64,000 nt of DNA from Verrucomicrobiota bacterium (GCA_049523455.1 JBEKMW010000009.1:6758-70757), one strand, 5' to 3'. Counted from the stretch's first letter, positions 328 through 48,575 are shown. Made by a program: numbers and translations. Notes: generated by a model not told the origin, from the letters alone.

Positions 328-1040
328 GTGCGGCGACTTGTCGCCGCTTTCCTCGACGCGACGTGTCGCGTCGAAACAAAGCGCGGACACGTCCGCGCAC
401 TCCCAAAAACCTGCGGCTGGCCAGCCGGTTCATGGGGAGCCTCCTTTCGATCTTTCGCATGCACTGGGACCATGAACCCAGTAGGGACTTCTCCCTCTCC
501 CCGCCAAACGGGGAGGGCCGGGGTGAGGGGTCGTTTTCTGTCTTCTGCCTTCATTGGCTATTGGCTATCGGCTATTGGATGTCGAATGTTCCCCCGGTTC
601 ATGGAAAGCCTCCTTTCGCCTTTGCGCATGCACTGGGACCATGAACCTGACGTAAGCTGCCAGTCTGCCGAACCAGGTTCGCGGGCCACCTGCTGTCCCC
701 TCTCCTATTCCCTCGCCCATTCTGATGGGAGAGGGACAGGGTGAGGGTATTAACTCTGATGGGAGGGGAGAGGGTCAGGGTGAGGTGAGGGTTCCGCCTT
801 CATTGGCTATCGGCTATTGGCTATTGGCTATTGGATGTTCGATGTTCCCCCGGTTCATGGAAAGGGCCGGGGTGAGGAGCCTGATTCTATTTGGAACTTT
901 GAGCCTGCCGATGCCACACGACCCTCCGAATATGAATGCTGCCCGCCTGCCATGCCCTCGCCCATTCGGATGGGAGAGAGGGAGGCCGAAGGCGGGTGAG
1001 GGTGTTAATTCAAATCAGCAATCGGCAATCGGAAATGATC
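328..1040. repeat. Mosaic of intergenic repeat families: palindromes, GGTTCATGG...CCATGAACC hairpins, GGGAGAGGG/GGTGAGGG units and heptamer arrays
   Basis: Three back-to-back palindromes at 330-398. Hairpin copies at 427-478 and 596-647. (ATTGGCT)n-type heptamers at 551-580 and 801-836. (AATCGGC)n at 1013-1040. The ORFs predicted here (328..744, 725..1153 and others) only read through repeats. Confidence 0.85.
330..350 (+). terminator. Possible guaB terminator hairpin (also the first unit of a REP-like palindrome triplet)
   Basis: GCGGCGA (330-336), CTTG loop, TCGCCGC (341-347), followed by TTT. It is followed by the palindromes TCGACGCGAC/GTCGCGTCGA (353-374) and GCGCGGAC/GTCCGCGC (381-398). 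Confidence 0.35.
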
Positions 1041-1092
1041 GACATTCTTCCGGCCCGATGGCACTCTGGGCGCCACCGGCACCAATGCCAGT

Positions 1093-1404
1093 GTGCTCGC
1101 CGCCTACTCGGATGCCGACGCGCGCGCCATCTTCGCCGCGCGCGCCAAATTGAATGGCAAATTTGTCCCGCTCAAAATCGCTTTCACGCCGGCCATTCGC
1201 ACCACCTGGCGCCAGCTCATCCGCTGGCGCCTCCGCGAGTGCGGCGGCACAGCCACCCTCGAACAGCTTTACGAACTGGCGGCCGGCCATCCCAAGCTCG
1301 CCGCCAATCCCAACTGGCAGGCCAAGATCCGCCAGCAGGTCCAGCGCGAAGCCGACCGCGTCGGCCCCGCGCTCTGGAAACAACGCTTCCTTTTGCCCGC
1401 ATGA
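1093..1404 (+). CDS. Hypothetical small protein, possibly with a winged-helix-like C-terminus
   Basis: GTG-started 103-aa ORF with strong GC3 bias. Contains ...GGTATLEQLYELAAGHPKLAANPNWQAKIRQQVQ.... No family recognised with certainty. Confidence 0.5.
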   Translation: MLAAYSDADARAIFAARAKLNGKFVPLKIAFTPAIRTTWRQLIRWRLRECGGTATLEQLYELAAGHPKLAANPNWQAKIRQQVQREADRVGPALWKQRFLLPA

Positions 1405-1478
1405 AAATGACCCAAGTGCAATGGATTCTCGCCTGCAGCGCGATGTTGTTAGCAGCAAAATCGTCACAGCTCAAATCC

Positions 1479-1652
1479 TCATGGCTTGGGGTCATCGTGC
1501 AACTTGTGCGCAATCTCCTCTGCCGCGCCAGCTATCCGCTCCGATGCTTTGACCAACCGGCTCAAAAGAATGACCAAAAAAACCGCCAAAGCAATCATGC
1601 CGACATAAATGAGAAGCACGAATAAAACCCAAATAAATCCTGACATCATCAT
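1479..1652 (-). CDS. Small (57 aa) single-pass membrane protein, hypothetical
   Basis: Hand-translated, below the ORF-track size cutoff: MMMSGFIWVLFVLLIYVGMIALAVFLVILLSRLVKASERIAGAAEEIAHKLHDDPKP. One clear TM helix. Confidence 0.35.
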   Translation of the reverse strand: MMMSGFIWVLFVLLIYVGMIALAVFLVILLSRLVKASERIAGAAEEIAHKLHDDPKP

Positions 1653-1694
1653 ATCTTGCCTTTTGTGTTGTGGTTAACTTTGCGTGTGTCTTGT

Positions 1695-1776
1695 TGCCTA
1701 ACGTTCCAATATAGGTAATCCGAAGTTATTCACCGGCGGGGCGGTGGGCCGAAGGAAATCCCCCGCCGCGCCGACG
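1695..1776. repeat. About 82-bp repeat, copy A (an inverted copy lies at 16918-17000)
   Basis: TGCCTAACGTTCCAATATAGGTAATCCGAAGTTATTCACCGGCGGGGCGGTGGGCCGAAGGAAATCCCCCGCCGCGCCGACGAG is, with a few mismatches, the reverse complement of 16918-17000. Contains a GGCGGGG...CCCCGCC stem. Confidence 0.85.
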
Positions 1777-1840
1777 AGAAGGGGTCGGTCAATAGTAATA
1801 TAGTATTTTAGTATTGACGATCGGGAATTAATTTTGCAGG

Positions 1841-2785
1841 ATGACAACCATGGCGCGGAAGCTGCGAGTGGAGTATGGCGGGGCGATTTATCATGTGATC
1901 AACCGCGGGGACCGGCGCGAACCCATCTTCAAGGATGACGAGGACCGGCGCCGTTTTCTGGCGACCCTGGGCGAAGCCTGTGCCAAAACCGACTGGCAGG
2001 TTCATGCGTTCTGCTTGATGCCCAACCATTTTCATTTAGTGGTCGAGACGCCCCAAGCGAACCTGGCGGCGGGGATGAAATGGTTTCTGGGGACCTACAC
2101 CAGCCGATTCAACCGGCGGCACAAACTGTTTGGCCATTTGTTCAGTGGTCGTTACAAGGCATTGATTGTGGATGGCAGTGGCAGCGGTTATCTGAAGACC
2201 GTCTGTGATTATGTGCATTTGAACCCGGTGCGAGCCCGGTTGCTCAAGGCGGAACAATCGCTGGGGGAGTATCGCTGGAGCAGTTGGCCCGAATACCTAA
2301 ACCGTCCGGGGCGGCGGCCGGCATGGTTGCGCGTGGACCGGTTGCTGGGTGAATATCGCGTGCCACGGGACAGTGCGGCGGGTCGGCGGCATCTGGCCGA
2401 GGCGTTGGAACAGCGCCGTGGGGCGGAAGCTGGCGACGCGTTCAAAGCGATCCGGCGAGGCTGGTTTTTCGGCAGCCCGGAGTTGAAGCAGGAATTGCTG
2501 GCGGCAATGTCGGAGCGGACGGGCCGATGGCATTATGGGGAGGCGGTGCAGGAGTCGTCGGTGGCCAGGGCGGAGCGTATGGTCCGGCAAGAAATGGGCC
2601 GGCGGAAATGGGATGAAGCGACCTTGGCTGCGCGGCGCAAAGGCGATGCCCAGAAGGTGGCCATGGCGCGGCGATTGCGGCGCGAGACGACGGTGACAGT
2701 GGCTTGGATAGCGGAACGGCTACGGATGGGAACCCCGACCTACCTGGCGCATTTGCTGTACTGGAACCGACGCAATGAAAAATAG
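1841..2785 (+). CDS. REP-associated tyrosine transposase (RAYT, IS200/Y1-like) with a C-terminal DnaA-type HTH tail
   Basis: N-terminal YHVINRG...HAFCLMPNHFHLVVETP (HuH motif) ...GHLFSGRYKA (catalytic Tyr region) ...YVHLNPVRA. C-terminus RRLRRETTVTVAWIAERLRMGT. Confidence 0.85.
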   Translation: MTTMARKLRVEYGGAIYHVINRGDRREPIFKDDEDRRRFLATLGEACAKTDWQVHAFCLMPNHFHLVVETPQANLAAGMKWFLGTYTSRFNRRHKLFGHLFSGRYKALIVDGSGSGYLKTVCDYVHLNPVRARLLKAEQSLGEYRWSSWPEYLNRPGRRPAWLRVDRLLGEYRVPRDSAAGRRHLAEALEQRRGAEAGDAFKAIRRGWFFGSPELKQELLAAMSERTGRWHYGEAVQESSVARAERMVRQEMGRRKWDEATLAARRKGDAQKVAMARRLRRETTVTVAWIAERLRMGTPTYLAHLLYWNRRNEK

Positions 2786-2915
2786 CATTATACCATTGAC
2801 CGACTCCCTCACATTCTGTCCCGCCCCCTGGCTGACGCCGTCCACCCGCGGCACAAATTCGTAACGTTTGGATTTCTGCATCCTACCTTCTGCCTTCTGC
2901 CTTTGTTCCGGCGGG

Positions 2916-4733
2916 TCAGGGCGAGAGTTGGCGCTGGCGGTCGGACAGGAACATTCCCGAACGAGAGGGCAGCACCGTGGTATTCTTGAGGGGGAAGCCG
3001 GGGGGAATATGGTTCAATGCGCCGGCTTGCAGCAAAAAGCGTCCCCAACTGTTGGGGGCGGCCAGGGCCATATCAGAATAGAACTTGCTGTCGAGGGTTT
3101 TGGTGGTGAGGTAAAGGCCCTGGACCGGTTTCAAGTATGTGTCGCTGAGGGCGTTGAAGTCGTCCTGGGCGTTCGCGGTGAGCCAGACGCATTCATGGCG
3201 GCCATACCACGCCACCGCCCAGGGGATGTCGCTCATCAGCAGTTCATTCTCACCCATTGCCCCGGAAATCTGCTGGATGTCCGGCGGGTAATACGGTGGA
3301 AAGGCCAATGGGGAAGCCTTGACCAACAGCGTAAAGACCATGGGCAGCCAGCATAACGCGACGAACAGAATGATGACGGCGTAATGCAACTGCACCAGCG
3401 GGAGCTTCATCTGCTCGAGGAACACCTGGAAGATAACCACGCCGTATATGAACACCAGCGGCGCAGCCAAAACGATCAGGTTGTCCGCGCTCACGTCCGT
3501 GGCCTCATCCGCCGGCCCGGTACGGCCGAAGGCTTGAAAAATAATGAGCATGCCGAGGCTCATCAACAAAAAGTAGCGCATCCGCCTGGGCGCCATGCTG
3601 CGGAACCCCAGCAGCAAACCGGCGAGGAACAACATGCTGGCCCAGTTCCCGCCCAGCTTGGGCAGGCCGCCTTCAAAAATGTCGCGGATATTGACGAGCC
3701 CCTTGTGCAAAACTGCCGCCGGTGAAAAGACCGAGGCCAGGTTCGGCTGTGCCGAACGTTCCAGGATGGTCGCCGGGAAGGTGGCGCCGGCAGCCATGGC
3801 ATAGCCAGCCGTGCCGAACGGCGTGCCGCTGACCGCCAAATTTCTTATTACCCAAGGCATCAGCACCAACAAAAATGCCGCCAACGCAACGAAGGCATGC
3901 GGCACCCGCCGCGGCCCGCCGAACAGAATCAGGAACACCACGACTGGAATGATCAACCCGCCAAACGAATAGCGGGTGAGGGCGCCCACGCCGGTGAGCG
4001 CGCCGGCCGCCGCGACCCAACCAAGCAATCGCCCGCCACCTGGCGTTTCCCGCGCCAAGGCTTCGATTCTCCAGATGCACCATGCCAGCCCCAGGAAAAG
4101 GACGATCAGCATCATCGTGGAGAGGCCGGACAGGCTGAACTGCCAAAGCTGGGCACAGCCGAACACCAGCACCGTCGAGATCCAGGCAACCGTGGAGTCA
4201 AACAGTTTTCGCGCCAGGAGGAAGGTGAGGACCACGACCACCATCAAGAGCAGTTCATTGAAGATATCCATGAGAAATTCCGGCTGGTAACGCTGGAAGC
4301 GTCCGCTGTCCGACCAGAAGGGCTTGGAGGTCTCCGCGTTGAAATTGAAGGGCAGAAGCTTCATCAAGCCGGCCAGCACCGTGGGATACACCGGCGGGTT
4401 GGCCAGGTCCGGATGCCCGGTCTGAATGTGTGCGAAGTCCGTGCCGGGAGCCGACTGGCTGCCCGCGCTTCTGGCCTCATTATGGGTCTGGACCAGATAG
4501 AGGCTGAACGGGCGGATGAACAACGTCGTGTAACCCTTTCCCTGTGCCAGGTTTCTGGCCACTTGCGCCGCGTCCATGGCTTCCGGCGCCGAGAAGTCGC
4601 GCAGCGCGCGCAAGTCCCACAGCAAACCCATGCCCACAACCGCCAGGATGACCAGCGCCACGCGCATGACGCGCGCTCCCATCCCGGTTTCGAGTTGGTT
4701 AATGAGTTCCTGGAGCGATCCGCCGATATGCAT
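2916..4733 (-). CDS. Polytopic membrane glycosyltransferase, GT-C fold (family 39/83, ArnT/PMT-like)
   Basis: 605 aa, more than 10 predicted TM segments, first-loop motif PEAMDAAQVARNLAQGKGYTT. Lies 3 nt downstream of the response regulator gene. Confidence 0.6.
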   Translation of the reverse strand: MHIGGSLQELINQLETGMGARVMRVALVILAVVGMGLLWDLRALRDFSAPEAMDAAQVARNLAQGKGYTTLFIRPFSLYLVQTHNEARSAGSQSAPGTDFAHIQTGHPDLANPPVYPTVLAGLMKLLPFNFNAETSKPFWSDSGRFQRYQPEFLMDIFNELLLMVVVVLTFLLARKLFDSTVAWISTVLVFGCAQLWQFSLSGLSTMMLIVLFLGLAWCIWRIEALARETPGGGRLLGWVAAAGALTGVGALTRYSFGGLIIPVVVFLILFGGPRRVPHAFVALAAFLLVLMPWVIRNLAVSGTPFGTAGYAMAAGATFPATILERSAQPNLASVFSPAAVLHKGLVNIRDIFEGGLPKLGGNWASMLFLAGLLLGFRSMAPRRMRYFLLMSLGMLIIFQAFGRTGPADEATDVSADNLIVLAAPLVFIYGVVIFQVFLEQMKLPLVQLHYAVIILFVALCWLPMVFTLLVKASPLAFPPYYPPDIQQISGAMGENELLMSDIPWAVAWYGRHECVWLTANAQDDFNALSDTYLKPVQGLYLTTKTLDSKFYSDMALAAPNSWGRFLLQAGALNHIPPGFPLKNTTVLPSRSGMFLSDRQRQLSP

Positions 4734-7500: not shown

Positions 7501-7971
7501 AAAAATCAACGAAACGCACCTGCAAAACAGAGTGTCAATTTGGCGCAAATCTGGAATTCGTCAATGGCAAAAGCAGCCAATGGCACAGTGTCATGGCACG
7601 CCGAATTTCAGGGTCAGCCGGAAAACCCAAGTTGGCACAGCGCGTTTTGCCTCATTGCGTCGTAGCGCGGGCATCCAGCCTGCTGTATCGCCGATTTCCA
7701 ATCGGCAGCGCTCGAGACTCTATTGGGCTTGGGGAGATTCTGCCGTGGTATCCGCCACCGCATGAAGCTATGGCGGGAGAACCACCGTCACGACTCGTCG
7801 CGCCGTAGCTTCGACGCGAAGGCGGAGGCGGGCACTTGTCCGGTCGTAGCCTTGGCGAAGACCGAAGGCGCTGGGATGTCTCGTCGCGTCGAAGCGCAGC
7901 GTAGGCGGATGAGTTGTAAGCGGCCGGTGAACTACCCTGACTGGATGGCACAAGAGCTGATGGCAGGAGGA

Positions 7972-8226
7972 TTAGGACTGGCGGGCAGCTTTACGTTTTG
8001 CGCTGAGCCAGGCTGCAGGCGTGAGGGATTTGACTTCGGAGGTCTTGGCCTTGGGCAAACGCTCAAAGACATCCTGGAGATATTCGGCAGGATTGATGCC
8101 CAAGCGCCGACAACTGCCCAGCACTGAGTAGATCACGGCGCTGCGCTGGCCGGCCTCGGCATGGCCAATGTTGGCCGGTCCATTTGTTTTTTCCACAATG
8201 CGCCGAAGGTGTTCCATGGGTGGCAA
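7972..8226 (-). pseudogene. IS66-family transposase, C-terminal remnant only
   Basis: ...GHAEAGQRSAVIYSVLGSCRRLGINPAEYLQDVFERLP...LTPAAW matches the conserved IS66 TnpC tail (AG-ERsAviYSLi-tck-gvnP-aYL-dVl-rl). The catalytic body is absent. Confidence 0.75.
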
Positions 8227-8356
8227 TCCCTCGAGGCACTTTTCAACCGCCGTTTACAATTAAGACCAGCCACGAAAAGCATGAGCACGGTCACGATAAG
8301 AACTATTCTTTTCTCTTTAGGATTATCCTGAATTGTTTGTTTATTGATGGTTGGAA

Positions 8357-9445
8357 TTAGTCAGAATTCATGGGAATAACCGAAGCAAAGATGGCCACCT
8401 TGTTTAGAACCATGAGTTGTTGTTTTGTAATGTTACTACCCACAAGGTCAATAGTCACAGCGGATGACAAAGTGAGTCCATCATCAGTTCCATCGTCCTT
8501 GATGGTGTCTTTATACTTCATTGTTCCATTTAACCCTGGCACAGAGGTATTGCTTGTGAAAAATGCCGACTCGTCCGTTGGTGCAGCAAATGCACCAGAA
8601 GCATCGGGAGCAGGTTCATTAACACGAATATCGTATTCATACTGCCCGAGTCCATTGATTTTACGTTGAGCATTTTTTACCCAGCGAATAGTTCCAGTTA
8701 CACGGTCAATTTTGACCACGCTGTTATCGGCATATTGCACAGTGAAGTTGTTGAAGAACCAACAATTCTTATCATAATCATACAGCATTTGACCATTGAC
8801 GGTAACTGGTTGATAGATTTGAACTGGTCCTTCTGCAAGGACAACGTTGTGAAATTCCATCTTATCATATCTTTTCAATGAGACAGTCATGGGTTTTCCA
8901 TTGACAAGACGATTGATATTTACGGTTTCACGAATTGTATCAGTCCAATTGGCGGGGCGAACGAGTGGTTTGCCTGCCGCTTGCCCGCTAAACTTGCTGG
9001 TGAATCCCCCTGCACTACCCATCGGGAGAATGTCAATGACAAGTGAACTCTTATCATAATCATAGACACCATCGGACGTGATTGGCACAATGCCATACAT
9101 ACGGCCAATATTGCGGGTTTGTGAGGGATTAGCCGGATTAACCACATCACAGTCAACGTCATATTTCAGAGTGCGGGGCTGAGTGACAGACTTGCTGAAC
9201 ATACCCTCAATAATTTGTGGGCTGTCAGTCATCTTGCCGTGGAATACCACACTATTTGCCACGTTGAGGTTGATCTCATAGACATCTTGGATACGCTTCG
9301 TGCCAGCGGGATTCTGGTGCGTGTTATACGTGATATTCATCGTTCCCCTGATGAATAAATTGGTATTGGCATTGGTTTGTGCAGTGGCAATAGAGGCAAT
9401 TGCCATAAGTGCAGGGGCAATAGATAGAAGTGATTTACTTTTCAT
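8357..9445 (-). CDS. Secreted protein of unknown family (signal peptide, beta-rich)
   Basis: MKSKSLLSIAPALMAIASIATAQT signal peptide. 362 aa, rich in N/T/V/Y. No motif I recognise. Confidence 0.8.
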   Translation of the reverse strand: MKSKSLLSIAPALMAIASIATAQTNANTNLFIRGTMNITYNTHQNPAGTKRIQDVYEINLNVANSVVFHGKMTDSPQIIEGMFSKSVTQPRTLKYDVDCDVVNPANPSQTRNIGRMYGIVPITSDGVYDYDKSSLVIDILPMGSAGGFTSKFSGQAAGKPLVRPANWTDTIRETVNINRLVNGKPMTVSLKRYDKMEFHNVVLAEGPVQIYQPVTVNGQMLYDYDKNCWFFNNFTVQYADNSVVKIDRVTGTIRWVKNAQRKINGLGQYEYDIRVNEPAPDASGAFAAPTDESAFFTSNTSVPGLNGTMKYKDTIKDDGTDDGLTLSSAVTIDLVGSNITKQQLMVLNKVAIFASVIPMNSD

Positions 9446-9487
9446 AGTAATGTATTGGATGTTGTGTTAGTTAGTTCATAGTAGATA

Positions 9488-9616
9488 TTAAGTGGATTGT
9501 GTTGATGGGTTATAATCGTGATTGTGGTCATCTGTATTGTTCCTTCCGCCAAACAAATATGTTAGAATAAGGAGAAACACTACGACGATTACGGTTGCGA
9601 TAATGCTACACTTCAT
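9488..9616 (-). CDS. 42-aa single-TM mini-protein
   Basis: Hand-translated: MKCSIIATVIVVVFLLILTYLFGGRNNTDDHNHDYNPSTQST. Sits 13 nt after the PspA-like gene and 42 nt before the secreted-protein gene. Confidence 0.45.
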   Translation of the reverse strand: MKCSIIATVIVVVFLLILTYLFGGRNNTDDHNHDYNPSTQST

Positions 9617-9629
9617 AATGGTTGATTAG

Positions 9630-10316
9630 TTAATAGTTATGTGGGCGTAAGTAACTATTGCGCCGAGACGTTTTAAGGGGCACAGGACCTGCGTCAATTG
9701 TGATGGGTTCTTCCAAATCCAATTGTGGCATGGACACGGAACACGCCGAAGACGTTTGTGCAATTGCTTTTGGAGCAGCAGGAGCGGCAACAACAGTGGC
9801 AGATGTAGGTGCTTCATCCAACAGTGCGGTATCCAATTCTGCAAAGGCCAGATTAAGACCATCTTGAACCGTGGTGAGGGCAGTATCCTGCATCAGTTGT
9901 GATTCAAAAGCTTCACCTACATTGGCGAGCGTGTTAGCCTGTGCCATTGTTTGTGCAATCTTCCAATCGGAACGCGTCTCGTCAATGATAGCGCTAAAGT
10001 CCTGCAACTTCACCTTGGATGCTTTGTATTTCTCGCCACGCAGTTCTACCAACGCCTTCAACTTGTTATACTTATCAAGCCATTGAGAAGGCTTGCCAGG
10101 ATAAGTGGCATCGTGCTCTTTGATTTGGTTGTATAGGTCTTGAAGGATGGCATATGTGGCATTAATATTTTCACGGGATGCGGCGAGTGCATTCATCTTG
10201 TCACGATAAATCATTTCGAGATTTTCAATGGGGTTCGCAGCAGCGACAGCCTTGAGTGCCTTGAGACGCCAATTGCCAACGAGACGAGCGAATGCGGGAA
10301 TGAGGTTGATGACCAC
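9630..10316 (-). CDS. PspA/IM30-like coiled-coil protein (tentative)
   Basis: GTG start. The N-terminal amphipathic segment VINLIPAFARLVGNWRLKALKAVAAANPIENLEMIYRDKMNAL parallels the PspA N-terminus ([34 protein letters not shown]). Helical repeats continue to about residue 165. Confidence 0.55.
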   Translation of the reverse strand: MVINLIPAFARLVGNWRLKALKAVAAANPIENLEMIYRDKMNALAASRENINATYAILQDLYNQIKEHDATYPGKPSQWLDKYNKLKALVELRGEKYKASKVKLQDFSAIIDETRSDWKIAQTMAQANTLANVGEAFESQLMQDTALTTVQDGLNLAFAELDTALLDEAPTSATVVAAPAAPKAIAQTSSACSVSMPQLDLEEPITIDAGPVPLKTSRRNSYLRPHNY

Positions 10317-10423
10317 GAATGCTACGGCCGAGAAAACGCCGAAAAAGGTGTCAACCCATAGAATGGTTCATTTTTCACGCGGATTGGTTTTGTTGCATCC
10401 ATTCGTGCAGCCGAGCATTTGCG

Positions 10424-10560
10424 CTCTTCCGACCTGCCTAAACCCACACGAGCCGTAATCGCTTTGAGCCAAAGCGTCGTCTCCCGGCGCAACCGCGCCG
10501 CCATCGTCAGCTTGTCCCGCCTGTTTTTCCGCTCTTCATCCACGTTCATCTGCGTCCATC
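10424..10560 (-). pseudogene. C-terminal remnant of a second RAYT-type transposase
   Basis: ...DKLTMAARLRRETTLWLKAITARVGLG parallels QKVAMARRLRRETTVTVAWIAERLRMG of the intact RAYT at 1841-2785. No catalytic domain. Confidence 0.6.
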
Positions 10561-10703
10561 CGCGGTTTACATTCTGCTCTTGCTTGTCATCCGTGTCCCT
10601 TCGTGTTGACCCCTGGCAAAAGCCCATTTTTGTGCCTCTTGTGCCTTGTTGCGGCTGATCCCGCCGTGGTTCAACATTTGGTTGCGCCCTTGCCACGCCG
10701 GGT

Positions 10704-40974: not shown

Positions 40975-41703
40975 ATGTTGGAGACAATCGAGAAGTTGTT
41001 GATCTTGCAGGATCGCGACCAGAAAATCCGCCGTGCCGGCGGCGAACTGGCGCACTTGGGCCCGGAGCGCGAAGGCTTGCGCGCCAAGGCTGCGGCCAGC
41101 CGGTCCCAACTGGAAACCTTCAAGGCGCGACTGAAACAAACGGAGGCCGACCGCAAACGCCTGGAACTCGACGTGCAGGAGAAGCAGCAGCAAATCGAAC
41201 GCTACGCCAACCAGCAGCTTCAGACACGCAAGAACGAGGAATACCGGGCGCTGGCCCACGAGATTGACGCGTGCAAGACCGAGATTACCAGGATTGAGGA
41301 CCGGGAAATCGAGCTGATGGAGCAAGCCGAACAGTTGCAGAAAGAAATCAGCCGTGCGACCCGCGAAGGGGACGAGACGGGCAAATTGGTGGAAGGCCAG
41401 GTGGCACAACTGAATCAACGCGAGGAGAATTTGAAAAAGGAGCTGGCGGTCTTGCAACAAGGCCGCGCGGAACTGGCGGCGGCGGTGGATGAATCGGCCC
41501 GGGCCCGGTACGAGCGGTTGATCAGAAGCAAAGGCGAGAACGTGGTGGTGGGCGTGGACCACGGTGTGTGCGGCGGCTGCCACATGAAGCTGCCGGCGCA
41601 AGATCTCGTCACGTGCCAGGCGCAGCAGGAAATCGTCGCGTGCATCCATTGCGGACGGATTCTCTACTACACCCGCGACATGGCGCTGGCGGCGGCGGAG
41701 TAG
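40975..41703 (+). CDS. COG1579/DUF164 coiled-coil protein with a C4 zinc ribbon
   Basis: LLILQDRDQKI..., long coiled coil, then CGGCHMKLP...CIHCGRILY. Confidence 0.85.
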   Translation: MLETIEKLLILQDRDQKIRRAGGELAHLGPEREGLRAKAAASRSQLETFKARLKQTEADRKRLELDVQEKQQQIERYANQQLQTRKNEEYRALAHEIDACKTEITRIEDREIELMEQAEQLQKEISRATREGDETGKLVEGQVAQLNQREENLKKELAVLQQGRAELAAAVDESARARYERLIRSKGENVVVGVDHGVCGGCHMKLPAQDLVTCQAQQEIVACIHCGRILYYTRDMALAAAE

Positions 41704-41708
41704 GTTTT

Positions 41709-41742
41709 GGAGCGCGGGTCTGCGACCCGCAGCACTTTTTTT
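41709..41742 (+). terminator. REP-family hairpin followed by T7, a likely intrinsic terminator
   Basis: GGAGCGCGGGTCTGCGACCCGCAGCAC followed by TTTTTTT. The same REP occurs at 56002-56026. Confidence 0.55.
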
Positions 41743-41764
41743 ACGAAATTGCGAACGAATTGAG

Positions 41765-41974
41765 TTGATCGAGAAAGTGCGTCAGAACGCCAAACACATC
41801 CAACGCAGCCTCGAGAAACACGCGCTGTGGCTGCTCGAACACCGGCTGTCCGCGGAAACGGAGAGGTCCGACGAGTTGGCGGACCGCATTTGGCGGGAGC
41901 CAGTGCCCAAAGCTGACCCCGCGAAAATTGACGCTTATCTCCGGAATCGGGGGCGACGGTCAACTCGCTCATGA
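41765..41974 (+). CDS. Hypothetical small helical protein (weak call)
   Basis: 69-aa ORF with a TTG start. No recognised motif. Confidence 0.25.
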   Translation: MIEKVRQNAKHIQRSLEKHALWLLEHRLSAETERSDELADRIWREPVPKADPAKIDAYLRNRGRRSTRS

Positions 41975-42069
41975 TTGCCGACCGTTAGCGCTTGGAAAGA
42001 CAACGTGCCGGGCCGCCGCGCTCCGTGATTTGCTTGTTTCGCAGGTGAAAATCGCGCAGCGTCTCGTTG

Positions 42070-42092
42070 ACTGAAACGCAGTCACTGAAACG
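42070..42092 (+). promoter_or_regulatory. 9-bp direct repeat (ACTGAAACG x2) just upstream of the DUF4160 gene, a possible operator
   Basis: 42070-42078 and 42084-42092, overlapping a TTGACT -35-like hexamer at 42067. Confidence 0.2.
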
Positions 42093-42102
42093 ATTACACA
42101 GC

Positions 42103-42336
42103 ATGCCGACGATTAAAATTGAGCGCTACAAGTTTAGATTTTACTCCTCGGACGTGGGCGAGCCACCACATGTTCACGTGATTGACGGCGACAGGGTCGC
42201 CAAAATCTGGTTGCAGCCGGTTTCGACCGAATACAATCATGGTTACAACGTGGCACAGTTGAACTATATTTTGAAGCTGACAAGAGAAAACCAGGCCCGT
42301 TTACTGGCGAACTGGAATGAATACTTTGCTCGATAA
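42103..42336 (+). CDS. DUF4160 domain protein
   Basis: MPTIKIERYKFRFYSSDVGEPPHVHV...AKIWL is the typical DUF4160 N-terminus. Confidence 0.85.
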   Translation: MPTIKIERYKFRFYSSDVGEPPHVHVIDGDRVAKIWLQPVSTEYNHGYNVAQLNYILKLTRENQARLLANWNEYFAR

Positions 42337-42583
42337 AACAATGGAAACGGTGAAGGCGCGCCACGCGAGTTTCGTCGGCGACCGCCTTTGCATCGAATTG
42401 TCCGACGGACGCGAATTGAGCGTGCCCTACAAAAAAATTCCGTGGCTCAAATGGCTCGCCAAGGCTTCGCCCAGGCAGCGCGCCGCCTGGTCGCTCGAAC
42501 CCGGCGGCTACGCGATTTATTGGGATCAGCTCGACGACGGCGTGGAAATCGGCCATCTGCTCGGCATGGAAAGCTTAAAGTGA
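42317..42583 (+). CDS. DUF2442 domain protein
   Basis: ...LCIELSDGRELSVPY...PWL...ASPRQRAAWSLEPGGYAIYWDQLDDGVEI. Overlaps the DUF4160 gene by 20 nt. Confidence 0.85.
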   Translation: MNTLLDKTMETVKARHASFVGDRLCIELSDGRELSVPYKKIPWLKWLAKASPRQRAAWSLEPGGYAIYWDQLDDGVEIGHLLGMESLK

Positions 42584-42590
42584 GCCGTTC

Positions 42591-42800
42591 ATGCGCTGCA
42601 CCATCATCATCGAACGCGGGCCGAAAAATTTCAGCGCGTACGCACCGGATTTTCCCGGCTGCGTGGCGGCGGCGGAGAGAGAACCGGAAACTCTCGCGCT
42701 GATGAAGGAGGCATTGCAAATGCACATTGAGGACATGCGCGAGCGCGGCGAACCGATTCCAAAGCCGAGCGGAATCCGCGAAGTGGAAGTGGCGGCGTAA
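42591..42800 (+). CDS. hicB: HicB-family antitoxin-like protein (UPF0150)
   Basis: CTIIIERGPKNFSAYAPDFPGCVAAAEREPETLALMKEALQMHIEDMRERGEPIPKP. Confidence 0.85.
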   Translation: MRCTIIIERGPKNFSAYAPDFPGCVAAAEREPETLALMKEALQMHIEDMRERGEPIPKPSGIREVEVAA

Positions 42801-42808
42801 AATAGCCC

Positions 42809-43945
42809 ATGAGTGATCCATCTTTCACACAACTATTTCGCCGAAGCCGGTATTCCCGGATTGGCCCGTCAGGAGACGATGAGCGGGATCAGGACCGCAA
42901 GGAAGTATTCGCCGTGGCAGCGGTAGGGTTTGCCTTAAAGCATGATGCCCAATTCCAAAAGAAATTCCTTGAAAAATTTGCCGGTATTGATGAAGATCCC
43001 GAAGATTACAAGCCAAGCCTCCAGCCGGCCGATTGCATAGACTTAAGGCTGGAAAACCCCCAAAAAAAGATTTTAGTCGCGGTTGAATTCAAAGTTGGCG
43101 CAGGACTGGCGGAACATCAAAATCCTTGGCTCGATTTCGACGAACGAAAGGCCAATCTCAGAAAACCCGATGACAAAGGTTTGCCGTTCTGGTGCAAAGC
43201 CAAAAATGGTTATGGCTTTCAATTCAGCAACGATTTTAAGGATTTTCCCACCGTCCATTATGTGATCGTTCAACAAAAAGAGCACGGAGATGTGCGTGAT
43301 GAGGAGCCAATCGAGCAACCTGGTAAAACTTTTCATTTGAAAAGGCGGAATTGGGAATGCCTTTTGCCACCGAATGCGGGGTTGGAGAGAGATTTAGTTA
43401 ATTCGTTGGGCGAACTTGGAATTACTGAACTCGTGGACTGGACTATGAAAACCATGAAAATAGACCCCGAATCCATTGAAGGTTGCTTCAAAGGATTGGA
43501 AGTAGGAGAAAAGCTCATCAAAATCCTCCTCTGGATTTCTAAGAAATTGAGGCTAACAGTCAAATTAGACGACTTTGTGACGGAAATATCGGGAGATTCG
43601 CGTTATTTAGGCATTGGTTTCTCAAATAAGGTTACGGCACGTCTATCGAAAGAACGATCTGCATATATCGGTAAGCGTGATTATGGCGCTGGATGGTTCG
43701 GCTATTCTTCGGAACAACAAGGAAAATTCCAACCCGAAGTGTGGTTTTATTGTAATGATAATATGAAGCCGAGGCTATTAAATATACTGAAAACTGAATT
43801 CAGTGATTCTGTAGAATTTCCTGAACCCCCGAAGGATGGGTGTGAAAACTACAATATTCGAATTCGCCGTTCGCAGACTTCGCGAAAGCCGGATGGGGCC
43901 TGGTTTTATGAAGTCTTAGGAATCAATGAATTTTCAAATGACTGA
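42809..43945 (+). CDS. Uncharacterised low-GC protein with a putative PD-(D/E)xK nuclease core
   Basis: 378 aa. ...[31 protein letters not shown]... fits D-x(n)-E-x-K on consecutive beta strands. Hand counts: line 43741-43800 has 17/60 G+C and line 43201-43260 has 22/60. Confidence 0.7.
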
Positions 43946-46427
43946 ACCCAAAGTTACACCGGAACTGGTTGCCAAACACAACCTGACGCCCGAGGAACAC
44001 CGGAAAATTCTCGAAGTGCTGGGCCGCGAGCCGAGCTATACCGAATTGGGCATCTTCTCGGTGATGTGGAGCGAACATTGCTGTTACAAGAGCACCCGCC
44101 CGCTGCTCAAAACCTTTCCGACCAAGTCCAAGAAAATCCTCGTCGGCGCCGGGGAAGAGAACGCCGGCATTATTGACATTGGCGACGGCCTGGCCATTGC
44201 GTTCAAAGTGGAGTCGCACAACCATCCGAGCGCGGTCGAGCCGTTCCAGGGGGCGGCCACGGGCGTCGGCGGCATCGTGCGGGATATTTTTACGATGGGA
44301 GCCAGGCCCATTTGCTCGGTAAATTCCTTGCGATTTGGACCGATCACCGGGAATTCGGAACGCGGAGCGCGGAGTGCGGAATCAAAAAGTGGGAAGGAAG
44401 CTGCGTTGAAGAACAACCGCCGCCTCTTTGCGGGCGTCGTCGCTGGCATTGCGCATTATGGTAATTGCTTTGGCATTCCCACCATCGCCGGCGAGGTTTA
44501 TTTCGACCCATCCTACGAGGGCAATCCGCTGGTCAACGCTTTTTGCCTGGGCGTCCTCCGCCACGAGCAAATCGCGCGCGGCGCCGCCAAAGGCATCGGC
44601 AATCCGGTCTTTTACGTGGGCCCGGCCACGGGCCGCGACGGTCTGGCCGGCGCCGCATTCGCCTCGCAGGATTTGACCGAGGAATCGGCCGAGCAGCAGC
44701 GCGGGGCGGTGCAGGTGGGCGATCCCTTCATGGAAAAACTCGTGTGCGAAGCCTGCCTGGAATTGCTGGCCACCGGCGCGGTGGCGGGCATTCAGGACAT
44801 GGGCGCGGCGGGCCTGACCTGTTCCACGTGCGAGACGGCGGCGCGCGCCGGCACGGGCATCGAAATCGAATTGGACAAGGTGCCGCAACGCGCGCCGAAC
44901 ATGAGCAGCTACGAAATCATGCTCAGCGAATCGCAGGAGCGGATGCTCATCATCGTTAACCGCGGCCGGGAAGCGGAGGTCAAACGCATTTTCGACAAAT
45001 GGGATTTGCCTTGGGCGGAAATCGGTTTCGTCACCGACACCGGCCGCATGGTGGTCAAACACCACGGCCAGGTGGTGGCGGATATTCCGGCCAGGAAAAT
45101 CGCCGATGAGTCGCCGGTTTGCCAGCGGGAGGCGGCCGAGCCGGAGTACCTGAAGGACGTGCGGGCCTTTCGGCTGGATGGAATTGCCGATTGCCAATCA
45201 CCGGTTGACGATTTGAAGAAGTTGCTGGCGTGGCCGACCATCGCGTCGAAAAACTGGGTGTACCGCCAATACGACCACATGGTGCGGGATGGTTCGGTGG
45301 TTTGTCCCGGCAGCGACGCGGCCGTGTTGCGCATCAAGGCGGACAGTTTGCCGGATCTGGGGAGCGCGCCCGCCCCGGGCGCCGCGGTTGACGCCCCGTC
45401 AACCGCAAAAGCCGGCGACATGTCAGCCGCCAGCGACGCACTTTCAGTTCCCGAGAAATTTATCGCCCTGACCTCGGATGGCAACGGCGCTTACGTCTAT
45501 CTCGATCCCTACGAAGGGGCGAAGGTCGTCATGGCTGAAGCGTGCCGCAACCTGGCGTGCTCCGGCGCCGTGCCATTGGGGACGACGGACAATCTCAACA
45601 TGCCCAGCCCCCTCAAGCCGGAACTGTTCTGGCAAATCAAGGAATCGGTGCGCGGCTTGGCCGACGCGTGCCGGGCCTTCAACGCGCCCGTCACCGGCGG
45701 CAATTGCTCGCTCTACAACCAGAGCCCCAACGGCCCGATTGACCCGACGCCCACCGTCGTGGTGGTGGGGTTGGTCGAAAAACCGGAACACGTGACGACG
45801 CAGTGGTTCAAGGACGAAGGCGACGCGATCATTTTGCTGGGTGAAGCGGTGGATGCGAGCGATCCGCTGTCCGGCCTGGGCGGTTCCGCTTATCTGCAAG
45901 TGATCCATGGCCAAAAGACCGGCAGACCGCCGCGTTGTGATCTCGAGCAGGCCAAAACCCTGCACACGACGCTGCTGGGCTTGATCCATTCCGGACTGGT
46001 AAAAAGCGCGCATGATTGCAGTGAAGGCGGTTTGGCGGTTTGCCTGGCCGAAAGCTGCATTTCACAACTCGCCGCCCGCGAAACGCCCCGCCTCATCGGG
46101 GCCACGGTGGATTTGAGCCTCGTAGGACAGGCTTCCAGCCTGTCTCAAACGAAAAAAGAAGATGGAGACAGGCAGGATGCCCGTCCTCCGGCGCGCTTGG
46201 ATGGCCTGCTCTTTGGCGAAGCCCAGTCGCGCGTGGTTATCACCTGTCACCCGCTGAATGCGGTGAAAGTGGTCGAACGCGCGAAGTTGATGGGTGTGCC
46301 TGCGGCACAAATCGGCAAAGTGGGCGGTGACCAGTTGACCATAAAAACCGCCGCCGGCGAAATCAGCGCGCCAGTGGCCGAATTGCACGACGTCTGGTGG
46401 AACGCCATCGCGCGGGCGATGGCCTGA
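43926..46427 (+). CDS. purL: Phosphoribosylformylglycinamidine synthase subunit PurL
   Basis: 833 aa. [52 protein letters not shown]. The start may be ATG 43938. Confidence 0.96.
44356..44383. repeat. Four CGGANNG heptamers inside purL
   Basis: cggaacg cggagcg cggagtg cggaatc, within a segment of about 19 aa ([19 protein letters not shown]) that is absent from B. subtilis PurL as I recall it. Confidence 0.8.
45339..45455. repeat. 117-bp (39-codon) insertion in purL carrying one arm of the 12269-12412 element
   Basis: GGGGAGCGCGCCCGCCCCGGGCG (45359-45381) against GGGGAGCACGCCCGCCCCGGGCG (12269-12291). Confidence 0.8.
46122..46190. repeat. In-frame copy, inside purL, of the same element family as gcvP 20043-20156
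   Basis: GTAGGACAGGCTTCCAGCCTGTCT...AAGATGGAGACAGGCAGGATGCCCGTCCTCCG against GTAGGACAGGCGTCCCGCCTGTCC...AAGATGGAGACAGGCGCGACCCGTCCTTCG. Confidence 0.85.
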
Positions 46428-46439
46428 CGAGTCGGCGCG

Positions 46440-48575
46440 TCAGGCGGACATCTTTTCCGCCGTTTGTGCAATTTCCGCCAATTCGTCTGCCATCCTTTTA
46501 TACTTAGTCAACCACTGTGCGGTTTTTTGCCTGAGCGATTCGCAGTCGTCCCCACTTAAATGACTCTGGCCTCTGGCCAATTGAAGACGGGGACCGGGAG
46601 CTGCACTGTCCGCTTCGGACGGTTCCGCACTCAGCGAATTCACCATTTGCTTTTGTGCCTCTAGCGCCTTTGCCAACACCGGCGCCTCGCCCGATGATTC
46701 TCCCACCGCCGCCATCTCATCCAGCACTGCCAGCGCGTCCATGAGTTCGCAGTTCTTTTTGCAAGCGCTGCCGGCTTGGTTCACCGCCGCTACCAACTCA
46801 TGGATGCGCTCCGACGAAACCGGATTTGCCCCCGCCCCACTTATGCCCGAAAGCGTAAGGGACAGGGCCAGTTGCATCCGGCGATTCAATGCCGCGGCGA
46901 CCTCGTGCAGCGAATTCCTCAAGGCCTGGCGTGCCGCAAGTGCGTCGGCCGCCGCCGTTTCGGCCGATTCGATGGTCTGGTCGGCGAGGGCGAAGGCTTC
47001 CGGCTGAATGAGAACGTCCGACTCCAGCAGCCGCACAGCGGCGCGGGCCTTAATCAGTTTCTGGGAGGCATCGGAATATTGGGATGCAATGGGCGCCAAA
47101 TGGCCGGCCACCCCTTGAAGTCCGGCGGACAGTTGATGCAGTTCCGCCAAGGCCGCTTCCGCATTCACCGGCGCCGGCGCCGGGACTTGGAGCGGCATCA
47201 ACAGCGGAAATACGCCGAGGAAAAATTCGTCGGTGGCGCTGCGGAAATCGGCCGCCGCCGCATACCCTTGAGCCGCCTTGGGATGCGTGGACTCCACGTG
47301 CAGCAGCATTCGCTCGGTAATGGGTATTCCCAGGTCGTCGGTGTAATGCAGCAACGTAACAAAACGCGCCGGATGCTCGAAACTGGCGAACAAGGATGAA
47401 GCCGGGCGGTCGTCATGAAAAATTCCGGGCTCGCCCGCCATGCGGGCTCGGCGGATGCGGTCCGCGGGCGATGGATGCGAATCAAACAGCGTGGTGCGAC
47501 GAAAGCCGAGGGTGTCGTCAATTTTTTGCAGGATGTTCGGCGCGAGGTTTTCATGCACCTGGCGCACCATTTCACTCAGGTTGTCTGGCAATCGGCGCTC
47601 CTTTTTCCATCGCAGCCGGATTTGTTGAAATGTCCCGTCCATGGCCGCGCCGAGCGTCGCGAGTTTGCGGTGGGTCGCCTCAAATGTTTCGCTGCCGACC
47701 ACTTTGATTTGCCAGGCGTCCGCGTCATATTCCATCTGGCGCAGCATGAAACCGGCGAGGATGTGGCCGATCAGCATCAGGAGTTTCAAAACCAGGCGCG
47801 AGAGCCAGACGGCGATCTGGATAAACCAGACCAGGAGCGCCACGCGGCCGTCCCGCACCTCGTTCGACCAGTTCTCGAGCGCCTCGTCCCAGGCGTCGCG
47901 TTCATACGCCACCCGCGCAAACCAGAAATTGATCGAACGAATCATGTAGCTCAACCGCATGCCGGCGCCCTGGGCGAAGTGGCCGAATTCGTGGGCAATG
48001 ACCCCGGCCAGCTCGCGCGCCGATAAATTAGCGGCCAGCGGCAGGCCGATGGTCAATACCAGATCGTTGCCCGCCAGGCTGCGCCATCCGTGGCGGAAAC
48101 TGGCGGACGCATTGAGGTCGCAATTCAGGTCAATCCGTTTCGGTGCGGGCGCCCGCACCACGTCGCAGATTTTTGCGATGAAGGCGTAAAGCAAGGGGTT
48201 GTCGGCCGGATTGAGAGCCAGGGGTTGTGCGCGTTTGGGGCGCCCGGCGAAAAGCGGCTTGAACATGAAGAACAAGACCACCACGCCAGCGAACAGTGGC
48301 GCCAGGTAAAGGAGGAATTTGGCAACGATGATGTATCCGACCCCAATAAAGCCGCCGAGGCCCATGATAGGCCTCAAATCATACACGGCGTGATAGTAAA
48401 CCAACCGCGCCAGAACCACCAACAGGGCGAGATAGACCAGTGGCAACACCAACATGGCGCCAGCGACGAGCAACAGACATGTGTGGTAAAGCATGCCGGT
48501 TTTGGGGCGCGCTAGGGTGGTATTCAGCGCCGACAAAATGGAATAATCGGGGCCTGATGTTTCGTTCACTGGCAA
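46440..48575 (-). CDS. M48-family zinc metalloprotease with N-terminal TM segments and a long helical C-terminal region
   Basis: AGVIAHEFGHFAQG (HExxH). 711 aa. Confidence 0.85.
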   Translation of the reverse strand: MPVNETSGPDYSILSALNTTLARPKTGMLYHTCLLLVAGAMLVLPLVYLALLVVLARLVYYHAVYDLRPIMGLGGFIGVGYIIVAKFLLYLAPLFAGVVVLFFMFKPLFAGRPKRAQPLALNPADNPLLYAFIAKICDVVRAPAPKRIDLNCDLNASASFRHGWRSLAGNDLVLTIGLPLAANLSARELAGVIAHEFGHFAQGAGMRLSYMIRSINFWFARVAYERDAWDEALENWSNEVRDGRVALLVWFIQIAVWLSRLVLKLLMLIGHILAGFMLRQMEYDADAWQIKVVGSETFEATHRKLATLGAAMDGTFQQIRLRWKKERRLPDNLSEMVRQVHENLAPNILQKIDDTLGFRRTTLFDSHPSPADRIRRARMAGEPGIFHDDRPASSLFASFEHPARFVTLLHYTDDLGIPITERMLLHVESTHPKAAQGYAAAADFRSATDEFFLGVFPLLMPLQVPAPAPVNAEAALAELHQLSAGLQGVAGHLAPIASQYSDASQKLIKARAAVRLLESDVLIQPEAFALADQTIESAETAAADALAARQALRNSLHEVAAALNRRMQLALSLTLSGISGAGANPVSSERIHELVAAVNQAGSACKKNCELMDALAVLDEMAAVGESSGEAPVLAKALEAQKQMVNSLSAEPSEADSAAPGPRLQLARGQSHLSGDDCESLRQKTAQWLTKYKRMADELAEIAQTAEKMSA

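Follow-up and report, generated by a model that had tools for sequence, protein, structure and literature searches.

A probable PD-(D/E)xK nuclease family in a variable slot upstream of purL in Verrucomicrobiota, beside an orphan HicB-like gene

Hot spots for defence or integration occur between core genes of bacterial chromosomes, and free-standing homing endonuclease genes are known from phages. In type II HicAB toxin–antitoxin (TA) systems, HicB usually carries a C-terminal DNA-binding domain. McrC, the endonuclease subunit of Escherichia coli McrBC, is a restriction and defence nuclease, and PDC-S26 is an unvalidated single-gene phage-defence candidate in PADLOC. The DUF4160/DUF2442 pair DhiTA has been validated as a TA module in Dickeya dadantii (PMC8198452), the same domain architecture also appears in PMC12065111, and orphan antitoxins are common (PMC7192599). 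Here we analyze a 64,000-nt stretch of DNA (the window) from a Verrucomicrobiota bacterium (GCA_049523455.1, JBEKMW010000009.1:6758-70757), in which a DUF4160/DUF2442 pair, a HicB-like gene, an unnamed gene encoding 378 amino acids (gene X) and purL follow one another. A sequence-only reading of this DNA had proposed that HicB and X form a novel TA or defence pair. We favor, with moderate confidence, a different reading: X would be a functional single-gene PD-(D/E)xK DNA nuclease of a defence or selfish type, lodged in an operon-embedded hot spot and co-expressed with purL, while the HicB-like gene and the DhiTA-type pair would be unrelated co-tenants. Our confidence is higher in the nuclease-family assignment and in the independence of the co-tenants than in this reading as a whole.

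Homologues of X were collected by a word-indexed search of 5.8 billion proteins and by an exhaustive profile search, and 103 relatives were aligned. The former returned 13 close homologues, and the latter 326 representatives of clusters at 50% identity, mostly ~350 aa long and alignable from end to end. Asp78, Glu93, Lys95 and Gln104 are invariant in the 103-sequence alignment (21–60% identity), and Glu32 is conserved in at least 90% of the sequences. The peptide quoted in the sequence-only reading begins at residue 76, and the D, E and K that it had taken to be catalytic are thus conserved family-wide. The copy in the window is full length and retains all of the conserved residues. AlphaFold2 modeled X with a mean predicted local distance difference test score of 84.4 over the full length and 86.5 over residues 1–190. 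The predicted topology of the N-terminal domain is α-β-β-β-α-β (helix 24–45, strands 68–74, 77–83 and 88–94, helix 135–142 and strand 148–155), with Glu32 in the first helix, Asp78 opening strand 2 and Glu93-x-Lys95 closing strand 3. When the N-domain model was compared with the PDB, the top four matches were all McrC (best probability 0.92, E = 6.4e-3), followed by HerA-DUF4297, several DdmD entries, HincII, Nt.BspD6I and Cap4, none of them at E ≤ 1e-3. PD-(D/E)xK nucleases topped the list with the N-domain model only, and the full-length model gave nothing usable against the PDB. In BFVD, the best use of the full-length model was a match to a viral protein that bears a PD-(D/E)xK nuclease annotation (E = 5.6e-4, probability 1.0).

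Profile searches point in the same direction, weakly. For gene X itself, neither Pfam, NCBIfam and PADLOC nor PDB sequences (the last searched with the single protein and with a profile) yielded a significant match, and scans of X and its 103 relatives against Pfam, NCBIfam, PADLOC and PHROGs returned only sub-threshold hints of PD-(D/E)xK. Weak hidden Markov model (HMM) matches to PDDEXK_4, PDC-S26, Cas4 and SduA were all centered on the motif segment. PDDEXK_4 aligns with residues 37–104 of X at E = 0.075 and 13.4 bits, short of the 22.3 bits for curated membership, and reaches E < 0.01 in one of the 103 family members. PDC-S26 matches X at E = 0.026 over 29 residues, and 15 of the 103 members at E ≤ 0.05 (best 6e-4), all of these matches being weak. 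The Shedu family (SduA, DUF4263) does not match X and is weakly matched by three of the 103 members (E ≥ 0.005), by none of them in Pfam. Each of these matches falls below strict significance, but jointly with motif conservation, the structural models and the fold matches they make a nuclease fold very likely for the modeled N-domain, as the sequence-only reading had supposed. X then represents an uncharacterized family of the well-known PD-(D/E)xK superfamily in an unusual setting. The C-terminal half, which had been left unrecognized, carries the conserved motifs LVxSLGELGI, WFGY and DxxWF; here the model shows four helices and an α/β unit, with weak YbjN-like fold matches only and no convincing structural relative.

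The composition of X sets it apart from its surroundings. The low G+C content noted earlier is real (the hand counts of 17/60 and 22/60 are exact): the G+C content of X is 44.2%, while the window averages 58.6% (standard deviation 3.9% among equally long windows). X is 3.7 standard deviations lower, and only 1% of windows are as low. X likewise lies 13–18 points under its flanks in every close locus, and its G+C at third codon positions (GC3) is 0.34–0.47 in every lineage, compared with 0.71–0.76 in neighboring genes, despite saturated synonymous divergence. This lack of amelioration suggests repeated import or allele exchange, or else selection for rare codons. The ratio of nonsynonymous to synonymous divergence (dN/dS, ω) is 0.16–0.33, and 0.20–0.25 for the least saturated pairs, which indicates that X is under purifying selection. 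Its dN is nevertheless 3–5 times that of purL or purQ, and across the same genomes purL is 80–84% identical and X 46–58%. Between two allele types of X, the C-terminal domain is 34–45% identical and the nuclease domain 60–71%. In neighbor-joining analyses, the tree of X and that of five concatenated flanking proteins are in conflict with 99–100% bootstrap support; by their flanks, for example, just one pair of loci is closer than L008 and L013, which are the most distant pair by X.

The close relatives of X come from Verrucomicrobiota metagenome-assembled genomes (MAGs), and, apart from the divergent P0013 described below, those with a sufficiently long contig place X between purQ and purL. 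The order purS-purQ-X-purL recurs in L001/L011, L002, L003-L006/L014, L007, L008, L012 and L013, so that X follows purQ directly, with no HicB or other antitoxin-like gene, in at least seven distinct lineages. The gap between purQ and X is 1–2 nt in most of these loci, and X and purL overlap or lie no more than 12 nt apart; L008 has an extra 67-aa open reading frame (ORF) between purQ and X. The closest genome-derived relative, L015, shares HicB-X-purL with the window next to a different upstream flank; its hicB contains an indel and deletions, and its X is frameshifted. Downstream of purS-purQ, L016 (6403-8156) encodes an intact HigB (Pfam E = 8.5e-27) and a HigA-like ORF that is truncated; of X, only 52 aa are left there, with 73% identity to residues 9–60. 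Since there is no purL within 8 kb, a rearrangement breakpoint inside X is indicated.

Several further features of these loci were recorded. L003:8001-8828 (also L004-L006 and L014) encodes a 275-aa variant of X with an in-frame deletion of ~100 residues that removes parts of the linker and C-terminal domain; its presence on 14 contigs, which stem from several samples, makes it probably genuine rather than an assembly error. In L015 (4156-4875), X and purL are separated by a 630-bp cassette that contains two small ORFs of TA-like appearance (70 and 87 aa). The cassette is bounded by 90-nt direct repeats that are 88% identical and span the start and the first 26 codons of purL, and it seems to have brought along a purL 5′ end of its own. 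The two ORFs resemble a TA pair by eye and have no family match. P0013 (35% identity; L009:482-2855 and L010), which diverges most within the close group, sits away from purL, after a gene for a ~400-aa AAA-type ATPase on the same strand. In L001:9092-11664, on a 4.6-Mb MAG contig, purL is broken into several ORFs, probably by indel errors of long-read assembly, which calls for caution with frameshift calls such as that for X in L015.

Distant members of the family yielded 42 further loci, ~36 of which were used to compare neighbors and G+C content. X has a lower G+C content than its flanks in ~30 of these 36. None of its neighbors there resembles HicB, DhiTA, HigB or purL, apart from a hicBA pair in L047, and no antitoxin neighbor is conserved. 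Some neighbors belong to restriction or defence systems: X lies between hsdR and hsdM with a 4-nt overlap in L031 (3-3826), HsdR-X occurs with NERD, HNH/ScoMcrA and PIN proteins in L021-L023, and GmrSD and Mrr are found near other distant members. In L056 (2472-8501), X is wedged into a non-defence operon, PSCyt2/PSD1-X-DUF1501. In both L031 and L056, it thus separates genes that are normally adjacent partners, with spacers of at most 24 nt. A ~265-aa tetratricopeptide repeat (TPR)-like protein is encoded recurrently directly upstream of distant X genes on the same strand (Table 1), abutting or overlapping X in L039 and L047 and 46–66 nt away in L027 and L038, and may be a partner of X in that subfamily. 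A relationship between this protein and the TPR protein that replaces X at some purQ/purL junctions (see below) was rejected (hhalign probability 0.4%).

Based on these data, we propose a plausible mode of action for X. It would work as a stand-alone two-domain DNA endonuclease, in whose McrC-like N-domain Glu32, Asp78, Glu93 and Lys95 would bind a metal ion, activate water and cut the phosphodiester bond. The fast-diverging C-terminal α/β domain would most likely serve in target choice or in restraint of the nuclease. The family would be accessory in uncultured environmental bacteria and behave in the manner of single-gene restriction or defence systems; a defence role for X alone is plausible. 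In one Verrucomicrobiota clade, X would occupy a variable cargo slot in a purS-purQ-[slot]-purL operon, where, packed almost without spacers and with its stop codon overlapping the purL start, it would be made from the purL transcript. HicB would be a different, orphan occupant of this slot and DhiTA a third, separate insertion. Because the three are independent tenants, the juxtaposition of HicB and X would reflect mosaic shuffling of cargo rather than a functional pair. Fold and motif, family membership, synteny, composition, selection, the conflict of trees and the independence of HicB and X come from the analysis itself, and from these we infer nuclease activity, a DNA substrate, a defence role and co-transcription.

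Several points weigh against this proposal. No fold or HMM match to a solved or curated PD-(D/E)xK family reaches conventional significance, including the best one in the PDB. A fixed position within the clade is equally expected of a vertically inherited housekeeping gene. The HicB-X-purL block is kept in two lineages with differing upstream flanks, which leaves some room for a functional link. The conflicting trees were built by neighbor joining from six MAG-derived taxa, with possible long-branch effects, and dS is saturated for most pairs. The X family was not found on plasmid, phage or viral contigs (tblastn of X and the distant member P0050 against PLSDB and INPHARED, and two scans of IMG/VR), and no mobility gene is attached to its members. 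Finally, defence neighbors occur in a minority of the distant loci, many neighbors being housekeeping genes.

The most interesting rival, to which we assign a small but appreciable chance, is a selfish life style akin to that of homing endonucleases: X would cut the insert-free boundary of two neighboring conserved genes and would be copied in during repair. This would explain how X comes to be wedged into operons without scars. Consistent with it, X is tightly inserted in three unrelated contexts (purQ|purL, hsdR|hsdM and PSCyt2/PSD1|DUF1501), its GC3 remains foreign and its tree conflicts with its flanks; within the clade it is patchy, being present, absent (junctions of the L059 type) or decayed, and L015 shows that the site takes up cassettes bearing a duplicate purL 5′ end. 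However, X resembles no known homing-endonuclease family, and Pfam scans of X and its relatives revealed no sequence relation to the LAGLIDADG, GIY-YIG, HNH or EDxHD families. No truly empty purQ-purL site is present among the recovered loci, and no insertion scars or flanking repeats were found around X in the window. Many distant members, moreover, are not wedged between obvious partner genes, and an ω of ~0.2 over a long divergence suggests host benefit or long-term maintenance.

The original proposal of a TA or two-gene defence pair, in which HicB would neutralize or regulate X in place of HicA, is improbable. Its starting points were sound: the coordinates given for the HicB-like ORF, the 8-nt gap and the 378-aa ORF are exact, all genes concerned are on the plus strand, and the gaps of 7 and 8 nt on either side of HicB leave no room for a hicA. 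The HicB call also holds, with a match to PF15919 (HicB_lk_antitox) of 40.9 bits (cut-off 27) that covers profile positions 3–64 of 123, i.e., only its N-terminal half; the 69-aa protein lacks the usual C-terminal DNA-binding part. In addition to the close spacing on one strand, the pairing is favored by the occurrence of the HicB-X-purL block in both the window and L015. In ten further contexts (L059-L068), close homologues of HicB have no hicA next to them, and HicB always heads variable downstream cargo, be it a TPR protein, a helicase or X. HicB is also strongly constrained, with an ω of ~0.04 against L059 and a dN of 0 at a dS of ~0.3 among relatives.

The distribution of the two genes argues against a functional pair. 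When homologues of X were checked for antitoxin-like neighbors, a check by which the sequence-only reading had said it could be refuted, the outcome was largely negative. HicB has at least 334 homologues, the best 120 listed being 74–93% identical, compared with 13 for X, a more than 25-fold difference in family size. An 83%-identical homologue also occupies the purQ/purL junction without X, in the order purS-purQ-HicB-(59 aa)-TPR-purL (L059-L062; in L059 at 1031-4216). In none of the loci L059-L068 does X come after HicB; what comes instead is a truncated HigA-like ORF of 59–63 aa and then a TPR protein or a helicase. A Dam-like methylase precedes HicB in L061, and in L063 the HigA-like ORF leads on to a UvrD-like helicase. 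The 59-aa ORF is read as a truncated HigA-like antitoxin, not a HicA, because it is 81% identical to the partner ORF of HigB in L016. The TPR gene (226 aa), with a G+C content of 0.47 compared with 0.63 and a 4-nt overlap with purL, is by these sequence features an alternative cargo at the position of X. Conversely, eight close loci read purQ-X-purL without a HicB, and when all X loci were screened by HMM, HicB was detected in just two: L015, whose copy is a decayed orthologue, and L047, whose next ORF reads as a typical HicA, giving a separate hicBA pair. Adjacency of HicB and X is therefore confined to the window and L015, and in L015 both genes are broken. Three small ORFs upstream of X (67 aa in L008, 78 aa in L024 and 173 aa in L018) were considered as hidden antitoxins and rejected, since neither Pfam nor NCBIfam matches them and none is similar to HicB. 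Because HicB and X each occur at the purQ/purL junction alone, the junction is best described as a mosaic slot in which HicB-X is one combination, and we conclude from these comparisons that the window HicB is an independent, strongly conserved orphan occupant and not the partner of X. The larger four-gene block envisaged by the sequence-only reading dissolves as well: its DUF4160/DUF2442 pair, indeed present upstream, co-oriented and overlapping, is by its domains a known, already described DhiTA-type module separate from X. The outcome also shows that an antitoxin-like neighbor, when seen in one genome only, provides weak support for a TA pair.

It is very improbable that the X copy in the window is a decaying relic without present function that is merely carried along in the purL transcription unit. 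Decayed copies do exist in L015, L016 and loci of the L003 type, and codon usage is unadapted; yet the window copy is full length with its conserved residues intact, and the range of ω given above reflects selection on the protein. Least credible of all is a housekeeping role tied to purine synthesis, e.g., as an accessory factor of PurLQS. Such a role would explain the fixed place in the operon and agrees with purifying selection on X and with its conserved position between purQ and purL, where start and stop codons overlap or abut in many of the clade's genomes. However, relatives of X outside the Verrucomicrobiota clade never adjoin pur genes, and in equally related genomes a TPR protein takes its place. 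In three lineages with intact pur genes, X has undergone a frameshift, an internal deletion or reduction to a remnant. Its GC3 is foreign, and it is not obvious what a conserved nuclease active site would do in the synthesis of formylglycinamidine ribonucleotide (FGAM).

The features of the locus, and the upstream TPR-like genes of distant loci, are collected in Table 1.

Table 1 Features of the DhiTA-HicB-X-purL region in the window, and TPR-like genes upstream of distant X members
Feature	Coordinates	Strand	Basis or remarks
Terminator-like hairpin and T-run	41714..41745	+	7-bp stem, 6 G-C pairs; ends upstream CT398-like gene
DUF4160 protein (DhiT-like toxin)	42067..42336	+	Pfam PF13711, E = 9.6e-16
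DUF2442 protein (DhiA-like antitoxin)	42317..42583	+	Pfam PF10387, E = 2.1e-12; 20-nt overlap with DUF4160 gene
HicB-like gene, 69 aa, limited to the N-terminal HicB domain	42591..42800	+	Pfam PF15919, E = 2.8e-10
Gene X, 378 aa, two domains, unnamed family	42809..43945	+	44% GC, GC3 0.43
X N-terminal domain, aa 1-190, predicted PD-(D/E)xK core	42809..43378	+	Conserved residues, predicted topology, McrC fold matches
Putative catalytic codon E32	42902-42904		
Putative catalytic codon D78	43040-43042		
Putative catalytic codon E93	43085-43087		
Putative catalytic codon K95	43091-43093		
Putative catalytic codon Q104	43118-43120		
X C-terminal domain, aa 191-378, four helices then α/β unit	43379..43942	+	Predicted model
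purL (FGAM synthase II)	43938..46427	+	Pfam AIRS, AIRS_C, FGAR-AT_linker
TPR-like gene upstream of distant X	L027:135-929		
TPR-like gene upstream of distant X	L038:2902-3702		
TPR-like gene upstream of distant X	L039:101-928		
TPR-like gene upstream of distant X	L047:4352-5149		
TPR-like gene upstream of distant X	L045:1724-2731		335 aa

The overlap of the 3′ end of X with the start of purL, also part of the sequence-only reading, is confirmed, and its length depends on the start codon chosen. The longest purL ORF opens with the ATG at 43926 and overlaps X by 20 nt, while the conserved N-terminus of the homologues (MTEP...) corresponds to the ATG at 43938 and an overlap of 8 nt; the stop codon of X occupies 43943-43945. 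This overlap of purL start and X stop codon suggests translational coupling. Neither purS nor purQ is present in the window, which reflects a rearrangement in this lineage that left X and purL together. The terminator-like hairpin upstream is the probable 5′ boundary of a DhiTA-HicB-X-purL transcription unit, judged by its sequence; the other plus-strand sites of this kind before the end of purL (43688 and 44595) are both weaker. An Rfam scan of 41000-46600 gave only chance-level eukaryotic matches and no regulatory RNA. Between the hairpin and the DhiT-like gene lies a 69-aa ORF (41765-41974) without a Pfam or NCBIfam match. Elsewhere in the window, the sole region as AT-rich as X is 7750-10700 (down to 42.5% G+C), with two minus-strand ORFs, 8357-9445 (362 aa) and 9630-10316 (228 aa), that have no Pfam match; it may be another foreign islet.

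If the proposed reading is true, X adds to the PD-(D/E)xK nucleases an unnamed two-domain family of ~326 clusters at 50% identity that Pfam, NCBIfam and the PDB do not cover, and it is a candidate for a defence or selfish element made up of a single gene. More unusual is its location, a hypervariable accessory slot inside an essential biosynthetic operon whose cargo is coupled to purL. This raises the questions of how insertion occurs without scars, why the cargo remains AT-rich through long divergence and why an orphan HicB is strongly conserved at the head of the slot. A more far-reaching version, which we offer as a speculation with the odds clearly against it, is that low-GC cassettes (X, the TPR protein, the Dam-like methylase, the helicase and TA fragments headed by the orphan HicB) are swapped at purQ/purL while remaining coupled to purL, at least one of them bringing its own purL 5′ end. 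X would then be the founding member of an operon-wedging PD-(D/E)xK family, a homing-type or single-gene defence nuclease whose expression tracks purine demand.

Among the described systems, McrC (PDB 6hz4, 7vsr and 6ut6) is the best structural match of the X N-domain, with ~180 aligned columns and a core of the E...D...ExK type, at an E-value of 6e-3, a template modeling score of ~0.36 and 6–8% identity. X differs from it in having no McrB-like GTPase partner, a different C-terminal domain and a single-gene organization. The latter is shared with PDC-S26, a single protein of ~400 aa; the matches of X to PDC-S26 and PDDEXK_4 are weak and extend over ~30–70 residues, and X is a member of neither by any curated threshold. 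Compared with type II HicAB systems, the window gene has a bona fide HicB N-terminal domain but no HicA and no DNA-binding domain. The pair at 42067-42583 has the domain pair, toxin-first order and overlapping genes of DhiTA, but is distant from it, scoring 19 bits against the cut-off of 100 for the NCBIfam equivalog toxin_DhiT, and is known here by sequence only. A literature search returned nothing on a hot spot at purQ/purL. X displays the traits of free-standing homing genes, namely a position between conserved genes, a patchy distribution and a tree discordant with that of the host. The purQ/purL slot, where neither an integrase nor a tRNA or att site came to light, resembles core-gene hot spots and homing sites in its variable, low-GC, horizontally exchanged cargo, its conserved flanks and its alternative occupants, and differs from them in lying inside a biosynthetic operon, with cargo that is co-oriented, almost free of spacers and apparently coupled to purL.

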